From IMG/VR virus record IMGVR_UViG_3300045995_000601: a stretch of DNA of 64,000 bases; one strand, given 5' to 3'. Source of the stretch: a virus. A model generated the notes under the pieces. The model ran no database searches, was not told the origin of the DNA, and worked only from the letters and a program-made list of their open reading frames with translations. This document shows positions 38,776 through 41,401 of this stretch, in pieces; position 1 is the stretch's first letter; each line of letters opens with the position of its first letter. The translations under genes and the position numbers were made by a program.

Positions 38776-39176
38776 GGACAAAGATGTCTATTATTAAAGG
38801 GCTGGGCCCAGTAGTAATGTCGGACCCTAAGATGAAACTGGGTCGTGCGGAACTATATTTTGGGCTCTACCAGGGGAAGGGTGCCGAGTTTGACAATCCT
38901 GAATGGGATTATCTGGAGGACGCGGGCTTTAAAATGTTAGAACTATACAATCCAGGATACTCTCCTCCCACCAAAGCCATAGAGATCCGTAAATGGATAG
39001 AAAAACATTTAGGATATGAAAACATAAAAGGCAAGCTCCGAGTTATATCTGTGCATCATGGAGAAACAGTTCGTATTAGGTGCTATGATAAGTATGTTTT
39101 TATATCCATTTGGCAACTTTTTAAAAGAGTAGAGGAGAAATACTACGATGTACATCCGAAACAAATTCGTAACTAA
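38772..39176 (+). CDS. hypothetical protein
   Basis: The start overlaps the previous stop (GTGA). 134 aa. Confidence 0.4.
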   Translation: MRTKMSIIKGLGPVVMSDPKMKLGRAELYFGLYQGKGAEFDNPEWDYLEDAGFKMLELYNPGYSPPTKAIEIRKWIEKHLGYENIKGKLRVISVHHGETVRIRCYDKYVFISIWQLFKRVEEKYYDVHPKQIRN

Positions 39177-39501
39177 CTCCTCCAGCTCCAGCACAATTAT
39201 TATGCGTAAACACCCACTACTCTTTGAGGATTTGCCCTCGGGCTTCGACAAATATGTTGTGGACTACTGTGTGCATTGTGGGCGCCTAGGGGATACTTTC
39301 ATAGAAGAGCACACAGAAGTAGAAGAGTGGGAGTATATAAAGAAGAAGATAGAGGAAGGCTACATACACATCTACCTAAAGACAGGGGGCCTGTGGATTC
39401 CAGATAAAAACAAAGTTACAGAAGAAATAGGAAATGCTTTCTGGGTGCTTGAATGTGATGGTGAGGAAGTTAATATTACATGGCAACATGTTGAGGTATG
39501 A
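39148..39501 (+). CDS. R-x-K-F-V-T-N-S-S-S-S-S N-terminal motif family protein (member 1 of 4)
   Basis: The N-terminus MYIRNKFVTNSSSSSTII is conserved with 40949, 49817 and 50569, including 18 identical nucleotides AAATTCGTAACTAACTCC shared with 40949. It lies immediately upstream of the rSAM-SPASM gene. Confidence 0.45.
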   Translation: MYIRNKFVTNSSSSSTIIMRKHPLLFEDLPSGFDKYVVDYCVHCGRLGDTFIEEHTEVEEWEYIKKKIEEGYIHIYLKTGGLWIPDKNKVTEEIGNAFWVLECDGEEVNITWQHVEV

Positions 39502-39884
39502 CAATAAGATCTATGAACACGAAAGGAACCATAAAATGGGATATGGACAAACGTTCTTTATTGTAGTTTGGGGAATTCTTTTAGCAGTAAATTCTGTTGC
39601 CTTAGTGACAGATGTCTCCAGTTGTAATCATGTCTCTACAGGGACCTTCGCGTTTGATCTCCTCTTATGGAGCGTATCTGCAGGCTTCCTGTGGAAGAAT
39701 ATAAGTGTACGTTTAGGAGAGAGTGAATGAAATTTAACGTTACAATATGGTGGATCTTGTTTATCCTAAACGGAGCTTTTGTCTTAGGAGATGTATGGGT
39801 GTATCAGGTCTACTGGGGAACGTGGCTTAATGTGGCAGCCGCAACACTAAGTGCATACGAGATAATAAGAGATGATAAGACCGC

Positions 39885-40949
39885 ATGCGAAAGGGACAAT
39901 ATATGATAACATCACCACGTATCTATGATCACGGTAACTACATGTCCTTCTGGGATCCTAACACAGGCATGTTCATAAGAGGAGAGTTGCCTGATGGAAC
40001 TGATCCTGAGTGGTCCCCCGCCGGGCCTGAATTGGCTGACATACATATAACTGACTACTGTCCTATGCACTGCAGTTACTGTTACCGTGAGAGCAACGCC
40101 TCGAAGAGCACACATATGAGCGTAGGCAGGTTTGAAAGCATCCTGAAGAGTATGTGTCCTACGGTTCTGCAGATTGCAATAGGCGGCGGTAGTCCGCAAC
40201 ACCATCCTGAGTTTATTTCTCTTCTAGAAATAGCAAATGCTCGCGGTATAGTTCCCTCATATACAACCAATGGTTTGGATATGACAGACGCTATTGTAGA
40301 AGCAAGTAAGAGGTATTGTGGTGCGGTAGCAGTGTCTCTGCATACCATAGATGGAGGCATGCAATCTGTACAAAGACTGCTAGAAGCTCAGGTTCCTACA
40401 GGTATACATGTTATACTCTCTAAGAACGAGATAGGCTACTGGACACGTATGCTAGAGAAAGCCAATAAGGGCAAGGGCATACTTGGTGGAAAGATAGAAC
40501 TATATTCCTGCATCTTCCTGATGCACAAACCTGTCGGGCGCGCCAGCTGGGATCAGCATCCAACCCGAGAGCAAAAATCAAGCTTTGTGAAAGCCCTCAA
40601 GAACTATAAAGGAAAGATAGCCATAGGTATAGATAGTTGTGCTTCTTCGTCTTTCATAAGCTCCTACCCTTTGGAGGAATTACCTGTTGACTATTTGGGA
40701 CCTTGCGATAGTGGCTGCTTTTCTGTATTTATCGATGAGCATCTACTCGTCTCTCCATGCTCGTTCAATGCGAAAGACATATTCTCGCTGGAAGACTTCA
40801 CGTTCGAAGAAATTTGGCAAGACAAACTTCAACCTTATAGAACCAGAATAATACACGCATGTCCGAACTGTGCGTCCAGATCTATTTGCCGAAGCTGCCA
40901 TGTCATACCTAGTATTAATCCCTGTGAAAGGCAGGAGAGGACAGTATAA
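39885..40949 (+). CDS. radical SAM enzyme with C-terminal SPASM/twitch Cys-rich domain
   Basis: The CX3CX2C motif reads DYCPMHCSYCY. The C-terminal Cys cluster CPNCASRSICRSCHVIPSINPC and the upstream CDSGCFSVFIDEHLLVSPCSF fit a SPASM domain. Confidence 0.75.
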   Translation: MRKGQYMITSPRIYDHGNYMSFWDPNTGMFIRGELPDGTDPEWSPAGPELADIHITDYCPMHCSYCYRESNASKSTHMSVGRFESILKSMCPTVLQIAIGGGSPQHHPEFISLLEIANARGIVPSYTTNGLDMTDAIVEASKRYCGAVAVSLHTIDGGMQSVQRLLEAQVPTGIHVILSKNEIGYWTRMLEKANKGKGILGGKIELYSCIFLMHKPVGRASWDQHPTREQKSSFVKALKNYKGKIAIGIDSCASSSFISSYPLEELPVDYLGPCDSGCFSVFIDEHLLVSPCSFNAKDIFSLEDFTFEEIWQDKLQPYRTRIIHACPNCASRSICRSCHVIPSINPCERQERTV

Positions 40950-41401
40950 TGTTTTGTAGACCTAAATTCGTAACTAACTCCAGCTCTTCCAGCTTCTATT
41001 TCTATTGTATAGGGGGCATGGAATTAAACGAGGAAACGCTGGGATTTCTGTCATTCTTTGAGCACCTTGAACACACCCCCACAGAAGTTATAAAATTCCT
41101 ACGGGATAATATGACGAGGATGACCCCCATAGTAATAGACCGGAAATACACAGAAGCCCTGCTCAACCTAACCGAGTGTGTAAAAAGTAACGAGGAGCCT
41201 TACAATGTGAGTTATAGGGCAGGAAGGCTTGCTGCATATGCAAAACTAAAAGACCTAGCCGAAAGTCACTTCGATATCTTCTACATAGAGACATATGATG
41301 GTGGGAGTGAAGGTCCTATATCGCAGGATATAGAATCTAATGTAAGAAGTAACGGTTCCAGTCTAGGCATAGTAGGTTTTCTCAAGCTTAGCAATCACTA
41401 A
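40949..41401 (+). CDS. R-x-K-F-V-T-N-S-S-S-S-S N-terminal motif family protein (member 2)
   Basis: The N-terminus reads MFCRPKFVTNSSSSSFYFYC. The start overlaps the rSAM stop codon (TAATG). Confidence 0.5.
   Translation: MFCRPKFVTNSSSSSFYFYCIGGMELNEETLGFLSFFEHLEHTPTEVIKFLRDNMTRMTPIVIDRKYTEALLNLTECVKSNEEPYNVSYRAGRLAAYAKLKDLAESHFDIFYIETYDGGSEGPISQDIESNVRSNGSSLGIVGFLKLSNH

Follow-up and report, generated by a model that had tools for sequence, protein, structure and literature searches.

A 64,000-nucleotide stretch of phage DNA (hereafter the window; virus record IMGVR_UViG_3300045995_000601 of IMG/VR) encodes a radical S-adenosylmethionine (SAM) enzyme with a SPASM-like C-terminus, at 39885-40949, together with four proteins that share a short N-terminal tag on otherwise unrelated bodies. 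Comparison of sequences and structure models suggests that this enzyme modifies the tag of the four proteins post-translationally, a reading to which we give a probability of about 0.6. It draws on the conserved pairing of enzyme and tag genes across phages and cells, on the fixed register of the tag relative to the first methionine, and on the similarity of the enzyme to peptide maturases.

Four proteins of the window share an N-terminal tag

The region around 39148-41401 is a crowded run of small open reading frames (ORFs) on one strand, in the style of large phages. The radical SAM gene is recorded on a 71-kb contig, whose nearest relative among viral contigs is 260 kb long. An earlier examination of the DNA that used no database searches (the sequence-only reading) had proposed a four-member family with a shared N-terminal motif. 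The start M-x-x-R-x-[KR]-[FY]-[VI]-T-N-S-S-x-S is found in four ORFs of the window and in no others, and a profile of the tag run over the window matches the same four alone. These genes, the radical SAM gene and the ORFs between them are as follows.

39148-39501, + strand: tag protein 1, 117 residues; start MYIRNKFVTNSSSSS, tag MYIRNKFVTNSSSSST; body with a CxxC pair
39434-39730, + strand: small hydrophobic ORF between tag protein 1 and the radical SAM gene; gene callers choose a shorter start (64 residues)
39727-39906, + strand: small hydrophobic ORF, 59 residues, overlapping the start of the radical SAM gene
39885-40949, + strand: radical SAM/SPASM-like enzyme, 354 residues; gene callers start it at Met7 (348 residues)
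40949-41401, + strand: tag protein 2, 150 residues; start MFCRPKFVTNSSSSS, tag MFCRPKFVTNSSSSSF
49844-50308, + strand: tag protein 3, 154 residues from its ATG; start MLIRKRFVTNSSTSS, tag MLIRKRFVTNSSTSSY
50569-50994, + strand: tag protein 4, 141 residues; start MLIRHKYITNSSCSG, tag MLIRHKYITNSSCSGF

All four tag genes have an ATG start and a Shine-Dalgarno-like sequence. The ATG of tag protein 2 overlaps the stop codon of the radical SAM gene (TAATG), and in tag protein 3 it overlaps the stop codon of the ORF before it (49320-49844). The sequence-only reading had placed tag genes immediately on both sides of the radical SAM gene. This is so downstream, where tag protein 2 is the only one directly adjoining the enzyme, but not upstream, where the two small hydrophobic ORFs intervene. 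It had also placed further members at 49817 and 50569; both are tagged, but 49817 is an upstream in-frame TTG. It is uncertain whether the two hydrophobic ORFs belong with the enzyme and the tag genes. The first has no family match in scans of Pfam and other libraries, and related phages likewise have an ORF of 65-95 residues directly upstream of the radical SAM gene.

The 18 identical nucleotides already noticed between two tag genes (AAATTCGTAACTAACTCC) were located at 39163-39180 and 40964-40981, and the bases on either side differ. Because the serine codons vary between the four copies, the tag is conserved as protein and not as DNA. The four proteins give no convincing alignment past approximately 20 residues. 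Among orthologues, 7-12 of the first 16 residues are identical, compared with 19-27% of the body, so that the proposed conservation of the motif is borne out. The orthologue of tag protein 1 (L001:557-889) shares 12/16 tag residues and approximately 27% of the body, and the positional orthologue of tag protein 2 (L002:11087-11632, directly 3' of its radical SAM gene) also shares 12/16 tag residues. The body of tag protein 3 has seven further family members among the tag proteins, and that of tag protein 4 belongs to a family of approximately 20, including L002:16541-16963.

The start codons of these genes are easily misplaced. The JGI calls begin 39148-39501 and 40949-41401 at an internal methionine (99 and 127 residues; Met24 in the latter) and lose the tag, as they also do in locus L098, whereas the calls of the Logan assembly retain both genes at full length. 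Such miscalls, which affect two of the four tags in this phage with one gene caller, may be one reason why the family has been overlooked.

The tag defines a large family of unrelated bodies

We searched 1.84 billion representative proteins exhaustively with a profile of 34 columns built from the four N-termini of the window. The matches at E ≤ 0.001 fall into at least 407 clusters (50% identity). Among the best 150 matches, 148 are true matches, and 140 of these have residue 9 as the exact start of the [TS]-N-[ST]-S core. The logo of 140 representatives reads M-[KFL]-[IV]-R-x-[GKD]-F-[VI]-[TS]-N-S-S-S-[ST]-S-[FY]-h-h-[YWF]-G-[VI], and the proteins are 44 to 288 residues long (median 120). We defined the family by M1, R/K4, F/Y7, V/I8, T/S9, N10, S11, S12 and an aromatic residue at position 16, starting at residue 1, all of which are found in the four window proteins. 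Conserved aromatics at positions 7 and 16 thereby flank the segment T/S9-N10-S11-S12.

Behind the tag the bodies differ. The alignments made by hmmsearch are limited to approximately 20-30 N-terminal residues, and blastp sorts 155 tag proteins into 43 body groups. The bodies of tag proteins 3 and 4 were also compared with that of the tagged protein that accompanies the enzyme in cellular genomes (the cellular partner), and the hhalign probability was below 1%. The cellular partner family alone comprises at least 1,175 clusters at 90% identity; where its members carry a name it is hypothetical (with one wrongly labelled an endonuclease), and Pfam domains are absent from all of them. Scans with the Pfam, NCBIfam, PHROG and PADLOC models gave no meaningful match for the four window proteins or for the cellular partners. 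A tblastn search of isolated phages with tag protein 2 found nothing, a word-index homology search with the same protein returned only itself, and a literature search found no publication on this tag, the tag as a text string giving irrelevant matches only. Three proteins (P0242, P0249 and P0259) carry two tags per ORF, one at residue 1 and one internal, each initiated by a methionine; they may be adjacent genes that have become fused, or else tandem units that occur naturally.

The enzyme resembles radical SAM peptide maturases

The window enzyme belongs to the radical SAM superfamily (PF04055, 49.1 bits for a cut-off of 29.5). The CX3CX2C core and the C-terminal SPASM-like cysteine cluster read earlier from the sequence are both present in the translation, as C59-x3-C63-x2-C66 and C326-x2-C-x5-C-x2-C-x8-C347. 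Across 30 homologues the core is invariant, eight more cysteines are conserved (C252, C274, C292, C326, C329, C335, C338 and C347), and a GGG[SNE]P motif is common to all. The CX2CX5CX2C spacing of the window enzyme departs from the SPASM reference motif, which has seven cysteines (C..C, gap, CX2CX5CX3C, gap, C). The SPASM model PF13186 does not match the window enzyme and TIGR04085 is not among the 25 NCBIfam matches listed for it, whereas homologues of the enzyme reach both PF13186 and TIGR04085 (30.9 and 29.8 bits for a cut-off of 27).

No characterised subfamily claims the enzyme, a classification on which the sequence-only reading had made its proposal depend. Every listed NCBIfam match is far under its cut-off: NirJ2 (51.1 versus 500 bits), viperin (49.3 versus 180), MftC (48.7 versus 265), MoaA (35 versus 284) and likewise PqqE. 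No anSME model is among its best 25 NCBIfam matches. A profile search of the PDB places SuiB first (E = 2e-11, with the alignment spanning the SPASM region), then PqqE, SkfB and anSME (E = 1e-4, also reaching through the SPASM region). The AlphaFold2 (AF2) model of the enzyme has a predicted local distance difference test score (pLDDT) of 91.7, and Foldseek finds SuiB, CteB, SkfB and PqqE closest to it, then BlsE, viperins and anSME (template modelling score approximately 0.6). Approximately 50 residues precede the core and include, in the model, a short three-stranded sheet at residues 12-32. By sequence and model, the enzyme represents an uncharacterised clade of peptide-maturase-like radical SAM/SPASM enzymes.

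Natural fusions of the enzyme with the tag are absent among 120 homologues. The tblastn search of isolated phages with the enzyme found only a 23%-identical radical SAM protein; it belongs to an uncultured phage of 462 kb, and no tags lie within 12 kb of it. Matches on Escherichia coli plasmids (24% identity) were rejected; they are a different family, without tags.

Enzyme and tag genes are paired across phages and cells

A scan of one genome per species identified homologues of the enzyme in 173 genomes, from many bacterial phyla and several archaea, and 80 loci were kept. In all of these but two, which are cut off upstream, an ORF of 107-142 residues (typically approximately 135) lies directly 5' of the radical SAM gene, often with overlapping ends, and its product begins with MK[IV][KR]x[DG][FY][VI][TS]NSSST[SC]F. 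We then scanned 1.53 Mb of locus DNA, from cellular, phage-type and control loci, with the tag profile. A tag ORF is present in 87 of 89 cellular loci, and the two others are cut off upstream. In 86 of them there is a single tag ORF, which abuts or overlaps the start of the radical SAM gene, and in the remaining one there are four. At L053:2426-4662, four tandem tagged partners lie 3' of the radical SAM gene, in place of the single copy 5' of it. All five phage-type radical SAM loci with available DNA (the window, L001, L002/L099, L006 and L103) have 1 to 11 tag ORFs within 10 kb, and the four control loci, with more distant or partial matches to the enzyme, have none. Conservation of the gene pair, one of the checks proposed with the sequence-only reading, is thus seen in both settings. 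Related phage contigs also contain head-to-tail arrays of tag ORFs (8 in L102, 11 in L099 and 4 in L094); these arrays of up to 11 tagged proteins, and the cellular operon described below, go beyond what that reading had foreseen.

Some of these loci have further peculiarities. On the 199-kb contig of P0006, approximately 20 head-to-tail genes for proteins of 109-176 residues lie directly upstream of the radical SAM gene, in a run broken by IS605/TnpB-type (OrfB_IS605) genes, which is possibly a very large array of tag proteins. A gene for a ClpP-family protease lies one small ORF upstream of the radical SAM gene in L001 (889-1521), in L002 (9411-9959) and on the contigs of P0003 and P0011. 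We considered ClpP as a member of the module and rejected it: it adjoins the enzyme in relatives, but it has no homologue in the window.

In cells the pair is part of an operon with a STAND NTPase

In 77 of the 80 genome loci, the pair belongs to a same-strand operon of four genes, encoding a protein of approximately 880 residues, a tag-less paralogue of the tagged protein, the tagged protein and the radical SAM enzyme. The STAND/NACHT NTPase core of the first protein matches the Avs2 models of PADLOC. The C-terminal 560 residues of this protein are homologous throughout, and its N-terminal effectors differ: they are SMEK/restriction-endonuclease-like domains or trypsin-like proteases, and in one locus the N-terminal region has a GHSLGG motif reminiscent of alpha/beta-hydrolases, as judged from sequence alone. 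The trypsin-like protease is found in nine loci, with an Avs1a/LmuA-like metallo-beta-lactamase gene upstream. Examples of the four-gene operon are found in Agrobacterium tumefaciens Ach5 (pAt, 20854-25306) and in Vibrio atypicus. In RefSeq, one such operon has only the labels "SMEK domain-containing protein" and "radical SAM protein", with two hypothetical proteins between them. Some copies of the operon adjoin integrases. An identical cassette of STAND, partner and radical SAM genes occurs on contigs of approximately 3.3 kb in three metagenome-assembled genomes from different phyla (L025, L026 and L028, assigned to Vampirovibrio, Bacilli and Eubacterium), which reflects a mobile element or else an artefact of binning.

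By blastx, the STAND gene and the tag-less paralogue are both missing from the phage-type loci, including the window, and the radical SAM enzyme is therefore the only companion of the tag that is common to both contexts. As the same pair occurs in a cellular operon with an Avs2-like STAND protein, a role in phage-host conflict is the most probable one for the phage copies, which might be effectors or decoys, for instance.

The tag behaves as an exposed tail

An AF2 model of the cellular partner, made with an alignment of 40 sequences, shows a small alpha/beta body (pLDDT 80.8; predicted template modelling score 0.77), for which no match was found among solved or viral predicted structures. Residues 1-11 have a pLDDT below 50 although they are the most conserved segment, which indicates an exposed tail. 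The product of the second gene of the operon is a paralogue of the partner body without the tail (hhalign probability 97.3%, E = 2.7e-11, from partner column 17 on). Since it has the same body without the tail, the tail is dispensable for the fold. In sequence and model alike, the tail appears as an appended, exposed element.

A model for modification of the tag

In the model that we favour, the tag M-x-x-R-x-[KR]-[FY]-[VI]-T-N-S-S-x-S-x-[FY], in its fixed register to Met1, would be both the recognition element and the site of reaction, and the variable bodies of approximately 100-130 residues would be cargo. One enzyme would then serve many substrates, as in the leader systems of peptides that are synthesised ribosomally and then modified post-translationally (RiPPs), here on whole proteins. 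The strict register to Met1 suggests that a free N-terminus contributes to recognition by the enzyme. A 5'-deoxyadenosyl radical would abstract hydrogen from a C-alpha or C-beta in the invariant T/S-N-S-S segment. Known SPASM chemistry, taken with the aromatics beside T/S9-S12, suggests either oxidation of serine or a crosslink from an aromatic residue to C-beta. The outcome might be an anSME-like oxidation of serine to formylglycine, or a crosslink to the conserved aromatic, such as a triceptide-like F7-x-T/S9 cyclophane. The sequence comparisons thus support the new family of protein substrates for a radical SAM/SPASM enzyme that the sequence-only reading had suggested; the formylglycine or crosslink chemistry that it named is what we infer for it here. 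Still more tentatively, the modified tag may be a currency shared by both sides of the conflict: in the cell, the modified tail of one small protein, which is paired with its tag-less paralogue, would regulate or arm the NLR-like STAND sensor, and large phages, with an enzyme of their own and arrays of up to 11 diversified tagged proteins, would mimic, titrate or subvert that pathway. A post-translational modification of a new type would then be at work on either side of bacterial innate immunity. We regard this extension as possible but doubtful.

Several observations count against modification of the tag by the enzyme. The known chemistries map poorly onto the tag, because it has neither the anSME substrate motif (C/S-x-P/A-x-R) nor a cysteine. 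Pfam and NCBIfam scans of the enzyme found no PqqD-like RiPP recognition element (RRE) domain, and some SPASM/twitch enzymes use non-peptide substrates (NirJ, AhbD, BtrN and GDGT-MAS). Two of the window tag genes lie 9-10 kb from the enzyme, and the arrays of L094 and L102 have no radical SAM gene within 10 kb. The low confidence of the modelled tail could also reflect a strand that is ordered only in a complex.

The tag might instead merely dock or lead the proteins to the enzyme, which would modify the bodies elsewhere; or the tagged proteins might be scaffolds or specificity subunits, with a small molecule or nucleic acid as the real substrate. RiPP leaders, after all, serve recognition only. 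As the bodies are unrelated, however, a common modification site outside the tag is unlikely, and the invariant N10, S11 and S12 are small and polar, which is atypical of a purely hydrophobic docking strand. The core of the enzyme is generically similar to viperin, MoaA and NirJ, but its scores for these families are far under the cut-offs and the structures nearest to it are those of peptide maturases. The radical SAM protein of the KpAvs2 operon, Avap1, is a possible counterpart of the enzyme; its role is unknown, and the small protein Avap2 binds the STAND protein, but the model of Avap1 is reported to have no pocket able to accommodate a nucleoside triphosphate (PMC11564622). On balance we consider this explanation unlikely.

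It is also conceivable that the tag is a signal for trafficking, processing or degradation that does not involve the enzyme, such as capsid targeting or a degron for a protease like ClpP, and that the linkage of the genes reflects co-regulation. A terminal signal would suit the strict N-terminal register, the arrays of paralogues, with their unchanging N-terminus and differing bodies, resemble the internal proteins of phage T4, and related phages have the ClpP gene upstream of the enzyme. Yet the tag stands beside the enzyme in 87 cellular loci where there is no capsid context, a ClpP homologue is missing from the window, and co-regulation alone would hardly account for tight translational coupling of tag and radical SAM genes in different phyla and domains; we hold such a signal to be quite improbable. 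Serine runs are common low-complexity sequence and two copies of the tag share 18 nucleotides, which might point to chance similarity or to a repeated DNA element. This is refuted by the frequency of [FY][VI]TNSS in the six-frame translation of the window (4 observed, 0.03 expected from shuffled sequence), by the variation of the serine codons, and by the 407 clusters at E ≤ 1e-3, with nearly all listed true matches starting from residue 1.

If modification of the tag by the enzyme holds, it defines a large family that is constant only in an N-terminal tag of 16-21 residues linked to a dedicated radical SAM/SPASM enzyme, and it predicts new radical chemistry on a Ser/Thr/Asn-rich sequence of whole proteins. 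It would provide a second candidate, after HXS (see below), for radical SAM-matured proteins in antiviral defence, in this case coupled to an NLR-like STAND sensor, and a way to test what the radical SAM accessory gene of Avs2 operons, so far unexplained, does. The tagged arrays of phages would become a candidate counter-defence or effector repertoire that depends on one enzyme.

Other genes of the window

Tag protein 2 is directly followed by three small paralogous proteins in tandem (41416-42451; 103, 122 and 118 residues), each of which has an N-terminal hydrophobic segment and a common motif resembling (D/E)xPVK-h-h-x-x-E-h-KYP-x-TL. Elsewhere the window encodes several proteins that are uncommon or unplaced. 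An ORF of 538 residues (6011-7627) has TROVE and Ro60-vWA domains, i.e., it is a Ro60-like RNA-binding protein in a phage, and one of 879 residues (18882-21521) has Major Vault Protein shoulder and repeat domains (PF11978, 90 bits, and PF17795), unusual for a phage. A complete protein with WGR, PARP-regulatory and PARP-catalytic domains is found at 33378-34775, and the PARP is kept in related phage contigs; it is followed by a Cys-rich protein of 452 residues (34798-36156) with many CxxC pairs and no family match. Coding strand and GC skew switch at approximately 56000, and a ClpB-like AAA+ ATPase is encoded at 56601-58685 on the - strand, the equivalent of which adjoins a Rad52-like gene in a related contig. 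Arrays of tagged paralogues occur in large uncultured phages that also have PARP, Ro60-like and vault-like genes.

Comparison with known systems

The closest characterised enzymes are SuiB (streptide), CteB and SkfB (sactipeptides) and PqqE. They have a CX3CX2C core and C-terminal SPASM cysteine clusters, to which the core and the SPASM-like cysteines of the window enzyme correspond, their genes adjoin those of their peptide substrates, and several serve multiple precursors with one enzyme. Unlike them, the window enzyme has no PqqD-like RRE, and its putative substrates are proteins of approximately 120-150 residues rather than short peptides, with a tag at the extreme N-terminus that has no Cys, Lys-Trp pair or Glu-Tyr pair. 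anSME is a radical SAM/SPASM enzyme that works on a Ser or Cys of a whole protein; it differs in its (C/S)-x-(P/A)-x-R motif, which the tag does not have, in its weak similarity to the window enzyme (E = 1e-4), and in its context, which is that of sulfatases and not of phages or STAND operons.

Among defence systems, the KpAvs2 operon combines an Avs2-type STAND NTPase with Avap1, a radical SAM protein whose role is unknown, and with the DUF6375-like Avap2 (Bechon et al. 2024, PMC11564622). The cellular operon resembles it in having an Avs2-type STAND NTPase, a radical SAM protein and a small accessory protein. KpAvs2 has three genes and a STAND protein of more than 1350 residues, as opposed to four genes and a STAND protein of approximately 880 residues. 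The small proteins of the module have no Pfam match of any kind, and the link to DUF6375 that was sought for them gave not even a faint one. We rejected the window itself as an operon of Avs2 or KpAvs2 type, since blastx finds no homologue of the STAND gene or of the second gene. In the HXS antiphage system (HxsA-D), radical SAM enzymes mature a protein effector (PMC13128918, 2026), which we count as a precedent for a radical SAM enzyme that modifies tagged proteins. HXS differs in its His-Xaa-Ser repeats, its two radical SAM enzymes and its periplasmic effector. Membership of HXS was rejected, as the tag proteins have no HxS repeats and a cellular homologue of the enzyme scores 24.3 bits with HxsC for a cut-off of 267.9. 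The composition of Ophion, another radical SAM antiphage system, is unrelated.

FXSXX-COOH peptides occur with FxsB-type radical SAM/SPASM enzymes in ternary conflict systems of the VMAP type (Kaur et al. 2020, PMC7159879). These systems likewise bring together a peptide modified by a radical SAM/SPASM enzyme and a STAND-type protein (AP-ATPase), and their aromatic-x-Ser recalls F7-V8-T/S9 of the tag. They differ in having the motif C-terminally, on a processed peptide, and in the presence of vWA-MoxR and a metallopeptidase; no FxsB model is among the best 25 of the 39-53 NCBIfam matches of the radical SAM proteins studied here. The tag was not found in KpAvs2, HXS or FXSXX-COOH systems, the nearest published ones. 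A radical SAM/SPASM maturase with genetically linked substrates is a kind of system that is already known. What is unusual here is a strictly N-terminal tag on whole proteins, the arrays of tagged paralogues in phages, and the presence of the module inside an NLR-like immune operon.

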